From an uncultured virus (IMG/VR IMGVR_UViG_3300018494_000116) (Duplodnaviria; Heunggongvirae; Uroviricota; Caudoviricetes), in the IMG/VR virus record IMGVR_UViG_3300018494_000116, positions 58,728-78,727 of that record: 20,000 nucleotides of DNA. One strand, 5' to 3'. Below, one piece after another: positions 7,109 to 20,000 of this stretch (position 1 is its first letter; each line of letters opens with the position of its first letter). Made by a program: the position numbers and the translations under genes. The notes below the pieces were generated by a model that was not told the DNA's origin, did no database searches, and was given only the letters and a program-made list of their open reading frames with translations.

Positions 7109-7957
7109 TTATATAGTTACACTTCTTTGTGCATGAAATGTATTCATCATAAGCATTGCGACTGTCATTGGTCCGACACCACCTGGCACAGGAGTAATCC
7201 AACTTGCAACCTCTTTGACTTCATCAAAGTCTACGTCTCCAACCAACTTGCCTTCTGCTGTTCTGTTTATGCCCCCATCAATTACAACAGCACCAGGCTT
7301 CACCATATCTACCGTAATCAGTCCCGGCTTGCCGACAGCGACTATGAGGATGTCTGCCTGTCTGGTCATCTCTGTGAGGTTCCTCGTGCGGGAATGACAA
7401 ATGGTTACCGTAGCATTGTTATTGAGTGCGAGAAGTGCAACGGGTTTGCCCACGATTTCACTTCTACCTACTACAACAACGTGCTTGCCGGTGAGGTGTA
7501 TGCCGTTTTCGTGGAGTAGCCACATAATACCCTTCGCTGTACAGGGTTCGTGCCATGCTCTGTCTTCATGTAGCAAGCCCATATTCTCACTGGTTAGACC
7601 ATCTACGTCTTTTTCGGGCGGTATTCTATCTATCAAAGAGCCGTCATCCCATCCCTCTGGAAGCGGTAATTGGACCATAATACCGTCTATCTCGGGATTC
7701 TCGGCATCCATTTCTATGCTTTTTATCACTTGGTACCAGTTACTGGGTTTCAGTTCGGCAGGACATTCACGAACAATCGCGTGGATACCTACCCTCTCCG
7801 CAGCATGCACCTTATTTCGTACATACACAGCAGAAGCCGGGTCATCGCCAATGCGATAAATGACCAGCGTGGGCGGGTCATTATCGTGGAGGTTTTTATT
7901 TATTAGTTCAAGTGCTTGCTCGGAGCAAGTCTTTCCGTCAAGAATTCTTGCCGCCAT
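7109..7957 (-). CDS. folD: Bifunctional methylene-THF dehydrogenase/cyclohydrolase
   Basis: YVRNK, VQLPLP, KDVDG, PCTAKG, GRSEIVGKP, TPVPGGVGPMT; start MAARILDGK at 7957 after AGGAG (track uses 8005). Confidence 0.97.
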   Translation of the reverse strand: MAARILDGKTCSEQALELINKNLHDNDPPTLVIYRIGDDPASAVYVRNKVHAAERVGIHAIVRECPAELKPSNWYQVIKSIEMDAENPEIDGIMVQLPLPEGWDDGSLIDRIPPEKDVDGLTSENMGLLHEDRAWHEPCTAKGIMWLLHENGIHLTGKHVVVVGRSEIVGKPVALLALNNNATVTICHSRTRNLTEMTRQADILIVAVGKPGLITVDMVKPGAVVIDGGINRTAEGKLVGDVDFDEVKEVASWITPVPGGVGPMTVAMLMMNTFHAQRSVTI

Positions 7958-8338: not shown

Positions 8339-8367
8339 ATTATACCATAAAATTTAAAAAAAATCAA
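8339..8367 (-). promoter_or_regulatory. sigma70/sigmaA promoter
   Basis: TTGATT-17-TATAAT with TG. Confidence 0.8.
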
Positions 8368-8385: not shown

Positions 8386-8403
8386 TCCCGAATAAATTCG
8401 GGA
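8386..8403 (-). terminator. Intrinsic terminator closing the RNA-array transcript
   Basis: TCCCGAAT/ATTCGGGA stem followed by TTTTCTTTTT on minus. Confidence 0.75.
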
Positions 8404-8408
8404 CTAAT

Positions 8409-8531
8409 TTAGGAATATTTCTTCAATTCTCTTTCGAGCTTCTTGCGTATCGGCCAATTGTCTTTACCATTGGTAGCCAATCTTGCAAGACGATTTTCAA
8501 TAATGAGCTTACGAAGTTCTTTGGTATACAT
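8409..8531 (-). CDS. Small basic protein (40 aa), below the ORF-track cutoff
   Basis: MYTKELRKLIIENRLARLATNGKDNWPIRKKLERELKKYS; AGGAG 8 nt upstream; terminator directly downstream. Confidence 0.75.
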   Translation of the reverse strand: MYTKELRKLIIENRLARLATNGKDNWPIRKKLERELKKYS

Positions 8532-8558
8532 AATAGCATCTCCTGACTTATTTAATAC

Positions 8559-8632
8559 TGGTACAGAATGTCGGTGCCGCCCCGCTACTCAAGTTCCCAA
8601 AACTCGTATGTTACTGTTACATCACATTCTGT
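8559..8632 (-). tRNA. tRNA-Pro(TGG), atypical 8/4 or 9/3 acceptor branch
   Basis: ACAGAATG/CATTCTGT acceptor, D arm ATGT/ACAT, AC stem CGAGT/ACTTG with loop TT-TGG-GA, T-loop GGCGGCA, A-CCA end. Confidence 0.75.
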
Positions 8633-8649
8633 ATATTTATTTACGGTTT

Positions 8650-8752
8650 CACTATATAACTATCACAGGCTGTCCGGCGGGAATCGAACCCACATCACCG
8701 TAAGTGTCTTCCAGAATTACCACTTCGGGCAAATCCTGCCTATTATATAATG
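8650..8752 (-). ncRNA. tRNA-like element lacking a full anticodon arm and CCA
   Basis: Canonical T arm GTGGG-TTCGATT-CCCGC, acceptor-like TTGCCCG/CGGACAG, extended by AGGC/GCCT and CATTATATAA/TTATATAGTG. Confidence 0.5.
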
Positions 8753-10875
8753 CCACAACCTCTTCACGCATTGGGTTGCTTCACTGCGGTTATCGCCACC
8801 TATTACACTTTGGGACGCCACCTAACATTCCCTCCCAAATATCATATCACTAGCATATGATAGAACCGCCTTTTGTCTAAGACGCGCTTTTCGTGTTTAT
8901 TTTACAACCCGTGGATTGGTTGGCTCGTCCTGCGAGCGCACCTCTAAAGGCGAAGTAAAACATTTTGCCACACTCGAAGTGTAGCCCCTATTTCTGCGTA
9001 GGGACCGCCGCGACGCCCAGTTAAAGCGTCTATCACGAGTTCAACTCGTGTAAGGTGGGACCAGGGCACGTATGCCAGCCCCTATCACTATCTAAGCATC
9101 CACAACACGTTCTTGCTTCCACCGTAGGCAGTTCACTACCTTCCCACTTATCCCTCAGTCCAATCCGTGCCCGGCAACAGCCGTCGAGGGGACCTACTAC
9201 TTTTCGATAGTTTGTTTAACAATATGTTACGAGTGCCGTCGCACCCATTACAATATTCGGAAACGCCCAGAGGTTCTTCCTTGAGCGAAACCTCAACTCT
9301 TCCCACACTTGAACAACTCAACATTGTTCTGTATTACACGCTCGTTCTCACGATGAATAACACAAGGATGGGTGAGCAATGACCTTTGGCATCCGCCCGT
9401 GAAGAAAGACGGTCAACTCCTCAAATTTCTTGCGACGAGCTATCTACACTCCGTTGTCCTACGTTTCCTAAATCCTCGGCTCCTCTTCGTTGTGCACTTG
9501 AGATATGCGTTTACTTAGCCCATATCTGCGTATCCGATTTGCAATTTTGCCAGCGGTATTTCAGCCTACTTTTACCTTGTACCACTCGCGTGGCCTTGAG
9601 GTTCAACCGCGGTCGTATAGGCACGGCCTTTGGACTCACTCGAAATGGTGCATTGTATTTCAACTGCCTGCTATTTTCGAGGTTTGGTGATAACATTTTT
9701 ATCCCGCTTTTATCCACCTTCTTGCGGTACCCAACTCTACGATATCGGGGTTTTACCGACAATAGCGGCCGGCTCGCTGGATCGTAGATTTTCAATAGCA
9801 CAGTAGAGGTAAATGCTTAACGATGCTGTGGATGCTCTGTCGGGGCGATCTGTTCCACCGACTCCCAAGTTTTTCGCAAACAATCAACACAACGTCATTT
9901 CACCGTCGTCCCGTCCGTCCACTACCTTAATTGTTTGCTATATTTGGCTGGCTGGGTCGTCTCATTTATCCTACCACCTGTATTCCCCGAGTAGGCACCA
10001 AATATTTACGGCGATATTTTCCCTATCCTCGCCTGTGGCCGTTTCAGTCCACGGACATTGTTTGTACAGTTTTCTGTTCTGTAGTATAGGCGTATGCTCC
10101 AGAGGGTTTGCAACCTCATCTCTATTTCTAGCGTTCTCTTTGTCACTACAGAGCTATCTTAATCTTACCTGATACCTATACAATTTTTTTGATTCATTGG
10201 CTGTTTATCACATTCCATTTACCACTGCTTCTGCTTCACCATTCCCTTTTACGTCGAGTCTTAATACTCAGTGTAGGCGGCGCTTCGTGGCACCAAATAT
10301 TTAACTCGTTGGCTGTTCTTCTAACTCCATTTACTACAGCTCTCGGCACAACCCCGCCCCAACAGTTCTCACGATTAACAAACGAATTACAGAACCTGCA
10401 AGCACCCCGATTCACGTAAAATAACTTCTCAGCATAAGCTCCACTACTTTACGGCTAACGGCTTAAGGGATCTTCGTAGCACCAACGTGCAGTTCGATAT
10501 TTCTACCGAATCTTTCCGTAGCTTATATCGTCAAGCGAAACGGCAGGTTGCCAGCCTCTGCATTTGGCATCCCATTATCGTATGGGAGACGACACCTGCC
10601 GCGTTAGACAACACAATCTTATTTGCTAACTCAAATGTGTGTTAGTACCTTTTGGTGCATACTGGTACTATTGGCAACAGTGCAAAAGTTGCAGAGGTTT
10701 TCTGCCTTTTGGTTCGGGTATTCATTATGGACAGGTACATAGACCCCATAGAGTTTTGGGGAACATCCCACTTGGTCTATGATTTATGCTGCGTATACCT
10801 ACTAGTCCGCCAACACTGGGCAAGTTGTGATACAACGGCTCAGACCTCGTAGATTGCCAATCTACCTCGTCAGCC
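8735..10875 (-). ncRNA. Large non-coding structured RNA tract (one giant RNA or an array of small RNAs)
   Basis: About 2.1 kb with no credible ORF, GC-richer than neighbouring genes, many closed stems, lying between tRNA-Gly and tRNA-Pro in one promoter-terminator unit. Confidence 0.65.
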
Positions 10876-10950
10876 TGGAGCAAGTAATGGGAATTGAACC
10901 CACATCTAATCCTTGGCAAGGACTCATAATAACCATTATACTATACCTGC
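10876..10950 (-). tRNA. tRNA-Gly(GCC)
   Basis: Cloverleaf; AC stem AGTCC/GGATT, loop TT-GCC-AA; U73-CCA. Confidence 0.95.
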
Positions 10951-11021
10951 AAATAATAGTTCCCATCTCTCTGTCTATAGTATGCCCATATAGACATCTC
11001 AGGGTCATCTGGATGGGAACT

Positions 11022-11095
11022 TGGAGGGAAGCAGTAGAATTGAACTACTAAGAGCAGAGCCACAATCTGCCGTTTTACCGTTAAACTAGCAACCC
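11022..11095 (-). tRNA. tRNA-His(GTG), atypical
   Basis: AC GCAGA-TT-GTG-GC-TCTGC; two U.U pairs in the acceptor; no G-1/C73. Confidence 0.85.
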
Positions 11096-11195
11096 ATTAA
11101 ACAAAAGAACAAAGATTGAGCGCGCGTTTCCTCTTTTAAGTCTGACTAACATCAGCGCGATAAAAATTCCAGACTTCTTTGTTCTTTCTATAAAT

Positions 11196-11224
11196 ATTAT
11201 AGCATAAATTTTGTTAAAAATCAA
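11196..11224 (-). promoter_or_regulatory. sigma70/sigmaA promoter for the His-Gly-ncRNA-Pro unit
   Basis: TTGATT-17-TATAAT with TG. Confidence 0.8.
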
Positions 11225-12922: not shown

Positions 12923-13672
12923 TTAAGTGCTTAAAAACGTACGATTATATAAATCTTTTATTTCTTTTGAATGCGTGGGTAAACCATATGCTTTACACCA
13001 TTTGCGTATTGCATTATCTGTTAAATTATATTTACGCCCCACAGCAGCGAAAGAAGAGGTCGCTACTTCTTCTAACAACTGTTCCGCACTCGGTCTTTCA
13101 ACTGTACGAATAGACTTGGCATAACATTTGGAACACATTCCAGTAACACCATCTTTGCTAATTGGTGTATTGCATACAGTGCAAAATCTTTGATTTCTCT
13201 TATGTTGTCTAAGTGGATACTGCACTCCATCTTGTTTCCATAACTTTCCTGCATTAAAATCACCAACAAAGCCCACAGAACAACCATTTTTATTAGCAAT
13301 GTCTTGATATGTCATATCAGTATTTTGCAAATCATTTGTAATGCTTGCTAATATATCTGCATTAAACTTACAGAAATGTTTTTCAGAACCACCTGGTCCA
13401 CAATTATAGCCGCTATTGTAACTATCATAAAAAGCAATCCAATAAATTTCTCGATCATTTAATTGCTCAACATCACACTCTTCAAGGATTTCATAAGTAA
13501 AATTTTCTATACCATACTTACGAAAAGCTTGATGTATTACGCTATTGTATTCTTCTGATGTTGGTGAACAATAACGAACTTTATGATCTTTGTGTCTGCG
13601 CACTAAGTCAACAGCTTGTCCTATATAACAGCTACCGTTTATTAAATTGGTGTATTTATAAATTCCTGTCAT
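12923..13672 (-). CDS. GIY-YIG homing endonuclease with C-terminal Zn-ribbon and HTH
   Basis: GIYKYTN...YIGQA, REIYWI, GYN; CTVC..CSKC; start set at MTGIY (track uses 13684). Confidence 0.9.
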   Translation of the reverse strand: MTGIYKYTNLINGSCYIGQAVDLVRRHKDHKVRYCSPTSEEYNSVIHQAFRKYGIENFTYEILEECDVEQLNDREIYWIAFYDSYNSGYNCGPGGSEKHFCKFNADILASITNDLQNTDMTYQDIANKNGCSVGFVGDFNAGKLWKQDGVQYPLRQHKRNQRFCTVCNTPISKDGVTGMCSKCYAKSIRTVERPSAEQLLEEVATSSFAAVGRKYNLTDNAIRKWCKAYGLPTHSKEIKDLYNRTFLST

Positions 13673-13692
13673 ATTGTCCCTCATATCATTTT

Positions 13693-14217: not shown

Positions 14218-14856
14218 TTATTTCCAAATAAATTTATAAGCAGTTTTTCTTTTGCCAGAAAGACAACGACCAATATTACATACAATAGAAGATATATTTG
14301 CAGTAATATTATACTCATCTTTTAAATAACGAGCTGCCTCGCTTAAAGACATAAAAGTATTGATATAATCATTATTTAATGAATATTGATGTACTACTTT
14401 ACCTGTAGTCATCGGCGTGACTAAAGAAGAGGGAATCATATCTATGTTCCGTTGCCGTAGTATATAATGCACAGTAGTTTTGTTAATATTCATTTGCCTA
14501 GCTACTTCGTTTTGGTTCTTATATATTTCATATAAAGCGCAAACTTTATCATAATCAATATACGGCTTTCCGTCCCCACCCAATGTAGCATTATAACCAT
14601 TTTTAAAAGATTGATAATATTCAATCCAATATCGTTCTCTTTCTTCTACAATTGTGTCGTCACATTCTTCGACGATACTAATTGCAAAATTATCAAATCC
14701 ATACTTATTCATTGCTCTGTATAACGGTTGATGACTTTTTTCTGGTTTTTGATAATCTTTTCGATGTTCTCTCCAACGAACTTCTATGGTTCTTAGTGTT
14801 TTACCGATATAACATTTTTGATTAATTTGATTGGTAATTTTATAAATGTATGCCAT
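14218..14856 (-). CDS. GIY-YIG homing endonuclease with HTH and NUMOD1-like C-terminus
   Basis: YIYKITN...YIGKT, ERERYWI, GYNATLGGDG; C-terminal FMSLSEAAR...KRKTAYKFIWK. Confidence 0.92.
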   Translation of the reverse strand: MAYIYKITNQINQKCYIGKTLRTIEVRWREHRKDYQKPEKSHQPLYRAMNKYGFDNFAISIVEECDDTIVEERERYWIEYYQSFKNGYNATLGGDGKPYIDYDKVCALYEIYKNQNEVARQMNINKTTVHYILRQRNIDMIPSSLVTPMTTGKVVHQYSLNNDYINTFMSLSEAARYLKDEYNITANISSIVCNIGRCLSGKRKTAYKFIWK

Positions 14857-15533: not shown

Positions 15534-15534
15534 A

Positions 15535-16266
15535 TATGTAATAGTTGTGGTGCCACCCTTAAGACTCTACAGAGCCTCGACTCAACTATTAAAAGCCGCC
15601 GCAATCTATTGTTTCGTCGACTGCCACCGCACGAGGATGCAAACATATAAAATGAAAGCCTGCGTGATTTACCAAGCCCAATTTTAAACCAATTCCTCTC
15701 TTGCTTGGCTCAAGTAGGATGGCGAATAAGACTTTTGGCATCGTCCTTATTCTAACGACTGTACAAGTTGACTGGCTAGGTCTTTACCGCGGCGAGGCTC
15801 TTCTAACGCCTCTGTGCGTATCTGGGACTTGAACTCCATAGCAATTTCATTACACTAAATTGCCCAAAAGCGATGATTTCAATTTTCGACTCAAATCACC
15901 AACAACGCCACCTTTCGCCGCCAAGCCAAGCGTGGAATGTTCTTGAGTTGCGGTTGGTCAGCTAACCTTACGGGGACGCGAGCTCCCGAGGAAGTCAATT
16001 TATAGGACAAACCTTCCCAACTAAAACCCCGTTTGTTATCGCAGTACGGTAACACGTCCGTTCGCCGCTAAGCGGGTGGAAACCAAACCCAAACGATATT
16101 TAATTCACAGTTACTTTGAACCACGGGTGAGCGATCGTTCAATCTCGTACCCACAAGTCACTCAATTCCATATCGTGAAAAGAGAAGCCGCACCCTTTCG
16201 GCGAGGTGATAGCCAACTGATTCGGTCAGTCAAACCAACATAGTATAGCGGCCCTATGTCAGGGTC
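15535..16266 (-). ncRNA. About 730-nt structured non-coding tract between tRNA-Asp and tRNA-Val
   Basis: No ORF in the track on either strand; nested stems, a pseudoknot and a T-loop-like hairpin. Confidence 0.6.
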
Positions 16267-16341
16267 TGGCGATCATGAGGCATTCCGACAGCCCGACCTC
16301 CTCGGTGACAGCGAGGTGCTCTACCCCTGAGCTACATGACC
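16267..16341 (-). tRNA. tRNA-Asp(GTC)
   Basis: AC CCTCG-CT-GTC-AC-CGAGG; G73; T-loop GTCGGAA. Confidence 0.92.
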
Positions 16342-16550: not shown

Positions 16551-16579
16551 ATTATATCATGAATTGCGCTAAAAATCAA
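16551..16579 (-). promoter_or_regulatory. sigma70/sigmaA promoter
   Basis: TTGATT-17-TATAAT with TG. Confidence 0.8.
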
Positions 16580-18140: not shown

Positions 18141-19059
18141 ATATAAGCTGCTTTTGTTATCGCAGTGCATTGCTATTCTTCTGCGTGGTTGATTCGCCGC
18201 CTACCATATACGGGTTCTTTAACGACGGATATGTTCCTTCCGTCCGTCCGCAACTCTTGCGTCCAAGAAGTCGCGTTTGTTACATTCGCGACTGTAACTA
18301 TTTCACACTATCTCCGCAACATCCTACATCCTCATGCCTAGCACATTGCCAGACAGGTGGAGTTGAACCACCCGGAGCCCAGTGAATCGTGTGAAATTTT
18401 TATGCTACCTGTTTCAGTAGGTCGGTAGTTACCATCCCCTCAATCCTCGGGTTGGAGCAGGAGATACGCTCCCGCCACGGTGTTTTTGCGGACTATCCGA
18501 CCGACAAAGGTTTGATGCTACTCGACGTGGTTAACATCTATATCCGCCCAATGAATCAATAATCTTTATAGTGCCAGAGTTCCAATGCACTCCTCGTTGC
18601 TCACGGATACGAGACCCCGGCTTTTTAGATGGCTGCTCCATACATAGTCTACATACGCCGAACTAGTTGGCTCCACGGTGTTTCTCGCCTCCGCCGACGT
18701 CGCTTCATTATTGGTGCAAGCACTAACCACCTTGCGGATGTACTGGTACGGCCCACCGCTGCCGTAAATTTTACATCACCAACCTGATGCCCGTTAACGC
18801 CAGAAGAGGCGGAAGGTTTTTGACCACTTTATCCCTACAAAGCCCTGACAAACAATCTAAGTGTCTAACGAGGTCAACCGAAGGGTTTTCTGCACCCTTA
18901 GCGAGTTTATATACCGTATTCTTCGGTGGGATAAGCATTATCAGACTTTTATCTTATCGCCATAAAGCTCTGACTTTCCCTCTTGGGTAGAGGTACTCTC
19001 TCCCGCACGATTTTCAACCGCTATCTACTTCTCATGCTCGTGTCACCCAATCTGCGCTT
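18141..19059 (-). ncRNA. About 920-nt structured non-coding tract between tRNA-Gly(TCC) and tRNA-Ser(GCT)
   Basis: No minus-strand ORF; internal repeats, a pseudoknot and a permuted tRNA-like module. Confidence 0.6.
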
Positions 19060-19133
19060 TGGAGCGGATAACCGGTGCTGGCCCGGTGCCCACGGTTTGG
19101 AAGACCGTTATACTACTGTTATACGATACCCGC
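19060..19133 (-). tRNA. tRNA-Gly(TCC)
   Basis: AC ACGGT-CT-TCC-AA-ACCGT; U73; T-loop GCCAGCA. Confidence 0.88.
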
Positions 19134-19159: not shown

Positions 19160-19188
19160 ATTATAACGCAAATTAGACAAAAAATCAA
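19160..19188 (-). promoter_or_regulatory. sigma70/sigmaA promoter
   Basis: TTGATT-17-TATAAT. Confidence 0.75.
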
Positions 19189-19450: not shown

Positions 19451-19522
19451 AGAAAAGTGGGGTAGATTAGCGGCTACCCCTCCGCTAGAAAGAAAGGAGG
19501 AAACCAATAATGTAACGCGTCG

Positions 19523-19594
19523 TGGTGGCAAAAATAGGTGTCGATCCTAATTGACTTCGTGTATGAGACGATGTTCCTTGCCGAAGGTTTTGCC
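19523..19594 (-). tRNA. tRNA-Met(CAT), elongator-like, atypical
   Basis: Perfect acceptor GGCAAAA/TTTTGCC plus A-CCA; TCGT-CT-CAT-AC-ACGA; T-loop ATCGACA; shortened D arm and C8. Confidence 0.75.
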
Positions 19595-19996
19595 ATATAA
19601 GGCACAGACATACGATTCTGTGCCTTGTGCGCACATTGTAGTGATTCGCGGCCTTGCTAGGTTTCTACACACCTCTGTTTCAGGTTCCACTTGTAAGGGA
19701 CATAGCCTCATCACAAGTTACGCAAACATTATGGCTCTTTTGTATTGCGTTCCCCAGCTTGGGTTTTGTACGAGTTGTCCTTCTCGTGGCTGCTGCCGCG
19801 CCCTTTGCCATTCCCGAGAGCGCCTTGATATTACCTCGGTCGCATTAGAGGGTTTAATGTAAACCCACAAATTGCACATTGCTTTTCCTTATGGTTCCAT
19901 TTGCTCTACCAAGAGACAAGTTGATAATAACGCTTCCACTTGCCAGCCTACGCCAATTTGGGATAAATTGGTAACCCCTTATCGTTGCCTATCGTT
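19595..19996 (-). ncRNA. About 400-nt structured non-coding tract
   Basis: No minus-strand ORF; hairpins such as AAGGCACAGA/TCTGTGCCTT and CCAATTT/AAATTGG; repeated CAARTGGAA. Confidence 0.45.
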
Positions 19997-20000
19997 TGGC

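Follow-up and report, generated by a model that had tools for sequence, protein, structure and literature searches.

The final 20 kb of the virus record IMGVR_UViG_3300018494_000116 (78.7 kb, IMG/VR; Caudoviricetes), the 20,000 nt referred to here as the window, carry a tract of about 2.2 kb (8650-10875) without open reading frames (ORFs) inside an array of tRNA genes. All coordinates are positions in the window, and the tract and the tRNA features are on the minus strand. The tract does not code for protein, its cores are conserved, and it is modular and outside any catalogued family. It is best read, with a probability of about 0.5, as an uncatalogued, modular, phage non-coding RNA, which would be co-transcribed with tRNAs, stands in the niche of the large phage RNA ROOL and would be a functional counterpart of the ROOL/GOLLD class.

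The tract would then be a non-coding RNA gene read from the minus strand. Transcription would start at a sigma-70-like promoter (11224-11196) and pass through tRNA-His and tRNA-Gly at least to a cloverleaf-like domain near 8650; the first terminator-like site downstream of the tract is at 8405-8384. Maturation of tRNA-Gly, whose CCA stands directly before base 10875, would set the 5′ end of the RNA, and the 3′ domain, with its long A/U helix, three hairpins and tRNA-type T-arm, may mark or protect the 3′ end. Judging by the place that ROOL takes in related phages, the product would be an abundant, phage-made structural RNA that acts as RNA and does not regulate an adjacent gene.

Coding potential and base composition

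Between 8660 and 10875 the longest ORFs are two on the plus strand (133 and 119 aa) and one on the minus strand (96 aa), and no long frame opens when TAG, TGA or TAA is read through. A single ORF of at least 15 aa is led by a Shine-Dalgarno (SD) sequence, a 34-aa frame starting at GTG. Small ORFs of the tract gave no match to Pfam (11 ORFs) or PHROG (12 ORFs) at E ≤ 0.1. A first-pass annotation, made from the sequence without database searches, had described the region as lacking a credible ORF; this holds under code 11 and with read-through of TAG, TGA and TAA, the short GTG frame being the only one behind an SD sequence. The same annotation had named a protein-coding signal as a finding that would speak against it, and none was seen in the ORF, read-through, Pfam, PHROG and SD scans.

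The raised GC content that it reported is likewise real (0.44-0.52 in the tract, 0.29-0.34 in the immediate flanks), though some coding windows (7201-7800) reach 0.48-0.49. The tract is purine-rich (A 30%, G 28%, U 23%, C 20%), its GC and purine contents being elevated as in tRNAs. ATG is depleted on its minus strand (31 observed, 45.6 expected, z -3.0), and the cumulative GC skew does not turn at the tract.

Searches for known families and homologues

Rfam 15 (4227 models, among them GOLLD, ROOL, OLE, raiA and ribozymes) was searched with the whole tract and with two 1.2-kb pieces at E ≤ 10. Only the two tRNAs reached the gathering score, and down to E ≤ 10 the tract and the pieces returned noise, save for a 17-nt match to the T-arm of transfer-messenger RNA (tmRNA). 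The region had not been matched to a known family by eye, and the scan of all these models agrees.

An alignment with the portal protein retrieved 30 IMG/VR loci, and ten large relatives of the phage (portal identity 35-53%) were compared. BLAST of the tract against 16 records of this portal family gave a best E of 0.02 over 17 nt, nhmmer against six whole genomes of relatives from the same family found no match at E < 10, and small-space blastn against the ORF-free gaps of three of the relatives (G001, G003 and G004) found none. Blastn for distant matches among 50,697 GenBank phage records returned tRNA-Gly only, and single IMG/VR queries with neighbouring proteins and the DNA polymerase returned only 100%-identical copies. 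Exact words of two cores retrieved only identical copies from viral contigs. An 18-mer hit 71 loci in metagenome contigs, all chance matches of 18-24 nt, and six loci in genome contigs, also by chance; a gapped motif gave one extra locus in viral contigs, a chance match in coding sequence. A non-exhaustive literature search found no description of such an RNA.

Relatives of the tract in sequencing runs

An index of sequencing runs placed the complete stretch in seven faecal DNA runs, possibly its source, and small shares of it in runs from bovine gut and gut, including five RNA libraries. Four runs from four studies (two bovine-gut DNA, one bovine-gut RNA and one gut RNA) were mapped at ≥80% likeness. 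Joints with a side shorter than 30 letters were excluded, and no absence can be read from the uncovered parts (8400-8591 in the RNA runs, 10608-10799 in all four). Contigs of relatives were found in all four runs, and their pieces cover 8592-10607 and 10800 onward.

These contigs show two features. Firstly, cores are 98-99% identical while the sequences flanking them diverge beyond 80%. The core at 9604-9710 has 2/107, 1/91 and 2/99 differing places in three runs, and one 910-nt contig from an RNA run matches the tract only at 9546-9641. Secondly, contigs pass over whole blocks (9729-9873, 10010-10541 and 10592-10817). From one relative to another, entire domains occur, are missing or stand in duplicate, and the tract copy is therefore an expanded member of its family. 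Other members are probably much shorter; a compact relative would measure roughly 0.6 kb, an estimate pieced together from joints in different contigs rather than an observed molecule. One RNA run (X22) has contigs over 8592-10607 and none over 10608-11183, where the tRNA genes lie, and both DNA runs cover the tRNA bins. Cover of the tract without the tRNAs is a weak hint of RNA origin.

Structure-preserving variation

Thirty-nine substitution rows within the tract, from 40 listed of 168, were compared with thermodynamic pair probabilities. A predicted partner at p ≥ 0.3 was available for 23, and the standard pair was kept in 13 of them; at p ≥ 0.75 it was kept in nine of ten. Four hairpins carry substitutions that preserve pairing, with four two-sided compensatory pairs in all. 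In an 8-bp hairpin at 8840-8862 (p 0.88), one relative differs at 7 of the 16 stem positions and all eight pairs survive, by three two-sided changes (U-A to C-G, A-U to G-C and U-A to C-G) and one G.U. Another 8-bp hairpin (8967-8985, p 0.93) shows two one-sided changes, U.G to U-A and C-G to U.G, both with pairing kept. Of five changes that one relative has in the helix closing 9876-9938, four keep their pairs (U.G to C-G, C-G to U.G twice, and A-U to G.U). The fourth hairpin (9582-9593), read by eye as CCAC-GCGA-GUGG, shows C-G to U-A in two runs and A-U to G.U; also by eye, the stem gains a C and, facing it, a G, and the loop changes from GCGA to GCAA, still of GNRA type, in all four runs.

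Wobble changes at 8856, 8984, 9591, 9909, 9933 and 9937 form pairs only in RNA from the minus strand; on the plus strand they would give A.C mismatches. The tract carries hairpins under selection at the RNA level, on the strand of the tRNAs.

Folding and domain anatomy

In 200-nt windows of the minus strand (n = 21), the mean z against shuffles was -0.64, and four windows (starts 8860, 8960, 9160 and 10460) had z ≤ -2, compared with a mean of -0.12 and none of eight for coding control windows. When two halves of 981 nt were folded, the 5′ half had z -0.20 and the 3′ half z -3.48. Helices with a mean pair probability of at least 0.7 number 28, and at least three hairpins are GNRA-capped. The five helices named in the first-pass annotation are all present in the sequence, three of them within this set of 28. 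Its description of the tract as densely structured applies to the four windows and the 3′ half; the other windows are ordinary and long-range helices occur at chance level. In the comparison with shuffled controls that it had named as a possible refutation, most of the tract folds no better than shuffles, and four of the 21 windows do.

Local hairpin domains, about 20-30 in number, follow one another along the body of the tract. At the 5′ end, a segment kept in relatives (10818-10875) is joined by their contigs directly to 10591 or 10588. The variable domain that follows (10592-10817) includes a CAUAGAC/GUCUAUG helix and coincides largely with the part uncovered in the four runs (10608-10799). 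Next come a closed domain covered by relatives (10541-10601; CGGCAGG/CCUGCCG around a CCCAU/AUGGG hairpin, mean p 0.95) and an AUAAGCU/AGCUUAU domain (10434-10526), in which a hairpin at 10493-10510 has a GAAA cap. At 10188-10341 a 42-nt repeat occurs twice, the copies being 112 nt apart and 76% identical; here the contig of one relative goes back 142 letters. AUAUUUGG/CCAAAUAU closes the domain at 9940-10008, whose 5′ motif, UAAAUAUUUGGUGCC, appears again at 10289-10303 and stands in a contig of a relative. A further motif, UUGGUGCYACGAAG, occurs at 10472-10485 and 10283-10296, and its first part, UUGGUGCY, has three copies in the tract.

The hairpin domain at 9876-9938 has a closing helix of 11 bp, recognised by eye, with outer pairs at p 0.53-0.69. 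Adjoining it is a 145-nt block of self-contained hairpins (9729-9873), absent from an RNA-run contig of one relative, which passes from 9710 to 9874 with 18 letters between. The most conserved core (9546-9728) shows 1-2 differences per ~100 nt in contigs of three runs and holds the GCGA-tetraloop hairpin 9582-9593. Further downstream, the contigs from both RNA runs have ~23-29 other letters in place of a variable domain (9083-9285).

Three candidate features were rejected. A tandem unit of ~535 nt was suggested by joint lengths, but k-mer offsets peak at ~295, 725 and 1020 and self-blast finds only four short repeats. Candidates for a helix closing 5′ on 3′, or for an acceptor stem, were not unique, with a duplex energy equal to the shuffled mean. 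A sponge of CsrA type was dropped, GGA not being among the enriched words.

Transcription unit and 3′ domain

Upstream of the tract, the sigma-70-like promoter matches the consensus at 10 of 12 positions (TTGATT, 17-nt spacer, TATAAT) and has an upstream TG (extended -10). It is followed by tRNA-His(GTG) at 11022-11095 and tRNA-Gly(GCC) at 10876-10950, both found by ARAGORN and Rfam, the latter with an encoded CCA. Read from the sequence, the 71-nt spacer between them (10951-11021) forms a long hairpin with a 9-bp outer stem, GUUCCCAUC / GAUGGGAAC, and a 7-bp inner stem. The tract begins at the base immediately after the CCA of tRNA-Gly (10875), a spacer of zero. Downstream in the same unit, a 40-aa basic ORF (8409-8531) starts at ATG behind an AGGAGA ribosome-binding site and has no family match; a terminator-like hairpin followed by a T-run stands at 8405-8384. 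All these elements, namely the promoter, both tRNAs, the 40-aa gene and the terminator, had been called correctly in the first pass. Inside the tract there is no convincing promoter or terminator, the best promoter-like sites matching at 9/12 positions and the hairpin 8985-8967 having no proper T-run.

A tRNA-Pro had also been called, next to the 40-aa gene, and this call has to be withdrawn. No tRNA is found at 8660-8740 by ARAGORN, whether run with its defaults or allowing introns, or by the tRNA model of Rfam (RF00005) at E ≤ 10, and lowering the ARAGORN threshold to 80% yields an implausible 93-nt call in which the real T-arm is taken as the variable arm. The sequence instead forms a cloverleaf-like 3′ domain (8650-8752), in which an 11-bp A/U helix (8742-8752 with 8650-8660), present in both the minimum-free-energy and the centroid structures, surrounds three hairpins. 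A tRNA-type T-arm, GUGGG-UUCGAUU-CCCGC (8677-8693), stands last among them; it has a 5-bp stem and a UUCGAUU-type loop and shares 94% identity with the T-arm of the adjacent tRNA-Gly across 18 nt. The likeness in relatives ends close by, at 8642-8647 in three runs. No 7-bp acceptor stem adjoins the T-arm, the best 5′ partners giving 6/7 matches and not being unique. A tRNA split by a giant intron was considered and rejected, since ARAGORN gives no call at its default threshold when introns are allowed. The tmRNA model (RF00023) matches the T-arm only, over 17 nt (model positions 347-363, 13.1 bits, E 0.007-0.018), and no tmRNA is reported at default ARAGORN or Rfam settings; at the 80% threshold a permuted tmRNA is called elsewhere (10372-11115), overlapping both tRNA genes.

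ROOL in related phages

ROOL was found full-length in seven of the ten related phage genomes (190-222 bits, above the cut-off), and in six of these seven it lies within 1.5 kb of tRNA genes on the same strand. The covariance model did not find it in G003, G005 or G012, nor in the complete 109-kb genome of the present phage (G017), which has terminal repeats and contains a region identical to the window. GOLLD (RF02032; model cut-off 150 bits, conserved 3′ region) was absent from all five genomes tested, G017 included, and from the tract.

One of the ROOL-bearing relatives, G001, has the order ThyX, HTH, tRNA array, ROOL (G001:93608-94167, L195 1501-2060; the other lineage ROOLs are L189-L194), 1.15 kb without ORFs, p137, dUTPase and p154. 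The order in the present phage is tRNA array, tract, p40, p69, FolD, p109, ThyX, HTH, p137, GK, dUTPase and p154. In both phages a large RNA in a tRNA array adjoins the same nucleotide-metabolism genes. A lineage that mostly bears ROOL, with one branch having an unrelated, larger RNA in the same place, amounts to a natural swap experiment; features common to ROOL and the tract RNA should point to function. ROOL and GOLLD are abundant, cage-forming RNAs of phages.

Other ORF-free stretches occur in these relatives. The 1.15 kb directly downstream of ROOL in G001 (G001:92462-93607, L074 12462-13607) has a counterpart in G004; the two differ at 7-14 places per 100 nt, compared with 0-10 (mostly 2-6) for ROOL itself, match no Rfam family and do not resemble the tract. 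G003, which lacks ROOL, has on its minus strand (G003:23400-24500) a unit of the same type, with a TTGATT...TGCTATAAT promoter, tRNA-Gly(TCC), about 500 nt free of ORFs and a small ORF with a ribosome-binding site; this unit has no sequence likeness to the tract. Many low-GC gaps of 0.6-3.5 kb without ORFs appear under code 11 in G005, G006 and G009, where stop-codon recoding seems possible. In G006, ARAGORN labels the tRNA at the start of the tRNA range (~60247) as tRNA-SeC.

Alternative explanations

Several observations weigh against the tract being an RNA of the ROOL/GOLLD kind. Folding energy is ordinary in 17 of the 21 windows and in the 5′ 981 nt (z -0.20). Helices of at least 8 bp spanning more than 300 nt number 178, with 171 ± 13 in shuffles and hence no excess, and the energy of a duplex between leader and tail equals the shuffled mean, giving no sign of one global fold. 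The substitutions examined are 40 of 168 rows, and between one and four contigs stand behind each covarying hairpin. Ten of the 23 substitutions with a predicted partner (p ≥ 0.3) break the pair; as the broken pairs are mostly long-range or low-probability predictions, there is support for the local hairpins but not for a global fold. The hairpin at 9582-9593 was recognised partly after its variants had been seen, and the thermodynamic model preferred another pairing for 9583. GenBank phages, IMG/VR, JGI metagenomes and GTDB genomes yielded no full-length divergent homologue. The RNA-library evidence consists of assembled contigs of relatives, without strand, ends or level, and DNA carry-over is possible. 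Finally, the term counterpart of ROOL derives from genomic position alone, no sequence or profile likeness being present.

Part of this evidence is what would be expected of a polycistronic string of independent small RNA modules, cut apart by host nucleases, each acting alone and shuffled between phages. Whole blocks are absent, replaced or duplicated in relatives, support extends to local hairpins and not to long-range helices, and there are internal repeats (the 42-nt repeat and the three copies of UUGGUGCY). Against it, the tract contains no tRNA-like element, ribozyme or known small-RNA family at E ≤ 10 and no convincing internal promoter (9/12 at best) or terminator. Conserved cores with variable inserts are, moreover, also the way in which single large RNAs such as ROOL and GOLLD vary. 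Independent modules, which correspond to the array of small RNAs that the first-pass annotation had offered as its other reading, are an unlikely explanation, though one to be taken seriously.

Within the preferred reading, the tract may yield one molecule or several. The first-pass proposal of a new giant non-coding RNA stands insofar as the tract is non-coding, it lies on the tRNA strand, no Rfam family contains it and relatives conserve its hairpins. A single giant RNA is not supported, because there is no signal of long-range helices, relatives lack whole modules and the folding energy is mostly ordinary. It is rather doubtful that the tract yields one processed RNA of ~2.2 kb that replaced ROOL in this branch, grew from an ancestor of ~0.6 kb by domain insertion and duplication, and, like ROOL and GOLLD, serves as an RNA-only assembly or scaffold tied to tRNA supply. 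If it did, a molecule more than 2.5 times the length of GOLLD would be the largest ornate phage RNA known, and the size range of structured RNAs of bacteria and phages would extend well beyond GOLLD.

The tract could instead be mostly functionless spacer, or mobile DNA decayed in the traffic of homing endonucleases, with a few selected hairpins or a DNA-level role in recombination or replication. GIY-YIG endonuclease genes do occur in the same array, the block-wise presence and absence in relatives resembles recombination mosaicism, folding energy is ordinary in most windows, and six phage genomes of the same portal family show no likeness to the tract. Decay is, however, difficult to reconcile with cores that stay 98-99% identical while their flanks diverge beyond 80%, with compensatory and wobble-only changes that are sensible only in minus-strand RNA, or with the tRNA-like rise in GC and purines and the depletion of ATG on that strand; the cumulative GC skew shows no turn at the tract. 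This explanation is improbable.

Still less probable is a ROOL so diverged, and so enlarged by insertions, that the Rfam model no longer reaches it. Seven of ten related phages carry ROOL in the same kind of place, and the compact relative, as estimated from joints in different contigs, is about ROOL size. The ROOL model (RF03087; cut-off 99.1 bits) nevertheless has no match in the window, not even a partial local one, either at the gathering score or at E ≤ 10, and none at E ≤ 10 on the 1.2-kb pieces or in the complete genome. An nhmmer search with a profile built from the seven lineage ROOLs found nothing in the tract, the words shared with them in blastn-short were of 10-13 nt and due to chance, and no long terminal helix joins the ends.

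A protein-coding tract, be it on one strand or the other or with an altered genetic code, is barely tenable: the obvious candidate, the 133-aa plus-strand ORF (9386-9787), is matched by five database proteins (P0121-P0125, 134-225 aa; E 9e-60 to 5e-11), but these have in common only the stretch conserved at the nucleotide level (~9545-9706) and diverge completely elsewhere, the ORF has a TTG start, no ribosome-binding site and no Pfam or PHROG match, no read-through of TAG, TGA or TAA gives a long frame, and the remainder of the phage is dense in code 11. Public protein collections contain spurious proteins that are antisense-strand translations of relatives of the tract RNA. The end of P0125 resembles the antisense translation of a tRNA gene; if it is one, a tRNA would lie ~300 nt from the conserved core in that relative.

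Phage and tRNA array

The phage has genes dense under code 11 and encodes a portal protein, tape-measure protein, DnaE-type polymerase, topoisomerase II, NrdD, ThyX, FolD and dUTPase. Its nearest cultured phages are Enterococcus phages, with a portal identity of only 22%. The window contains 21 tRNA genes, all on the minus strand, of which 19 were found by ARAGORN and two by Rfam only (16270-16341 and 19063-19133). Interleaved with them are two GIY-YIG homing-endonuclease-like genes (12923-13684 and 14218-14856), one with NUMOD1.

Besides 11196-11224, near-identical promoter-like copies occur at 8339-8367, 16551-16579 and 19160-19188. Each of the four sites (TTGATT, 17-nt spacer, TATAAT; three with the upstream TG) heads one of the successive blocks of the tRNA region. 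Further ORF-free tracts lie in the array at 15534-16269, 18141-19062 and 19451-20000, with a GC content of 0.44-0.51 and no Rfam family at E ≤ 5.

Comparison with known RNAs

With the tRNA-like domain of tmRNA, and with viral tRNA-like structures, the tract has in common a T-arm with the tRNA loop consensus and four helices arranged as a cloverleaf. Unlike tRNA and tmRNA, its 3′ domain is recognised as neither, has no tag reading frame and does not encode CCA.

ROOL and GOLLD are described (PMC12286853) as phage RNAs often found near tRNA islands, both forming cages of unknown function. The same account mentions ROOL env-120 from cow rumen (659 nt), a variable linker and, for GOLLD, many examples longer than 800 nt, conserved and variable parts, and tRNAs that are sometimes covalently linked.

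ROOL forms a homo-octameric RNA cage. The tract differs from ROOL (~0.6 kb) in its length of ~2.2 kb, in having no likeness to it by covariance model, profile or sequence, and in that no terminal helix joining its ends was found. The two are alike in being large, phage-encoded non-coding RNAs in or beside a tRNA island and on the tRNA strand, the tract abutting tRNA-Gly among 21 tRNA genes. Relatives of the tract come from the gut of ruminants or other animals, as ROOL env-120 comes from cow rumen, and the tract stands where seven of ten phages of the same portal family carry ROOL. GOLLD is less than half as long, and its model matches neither the tract nor the complete genome; like GOLLD, the tract is a large phage RNA near a tRNA island, composed of conserved and variable parts.

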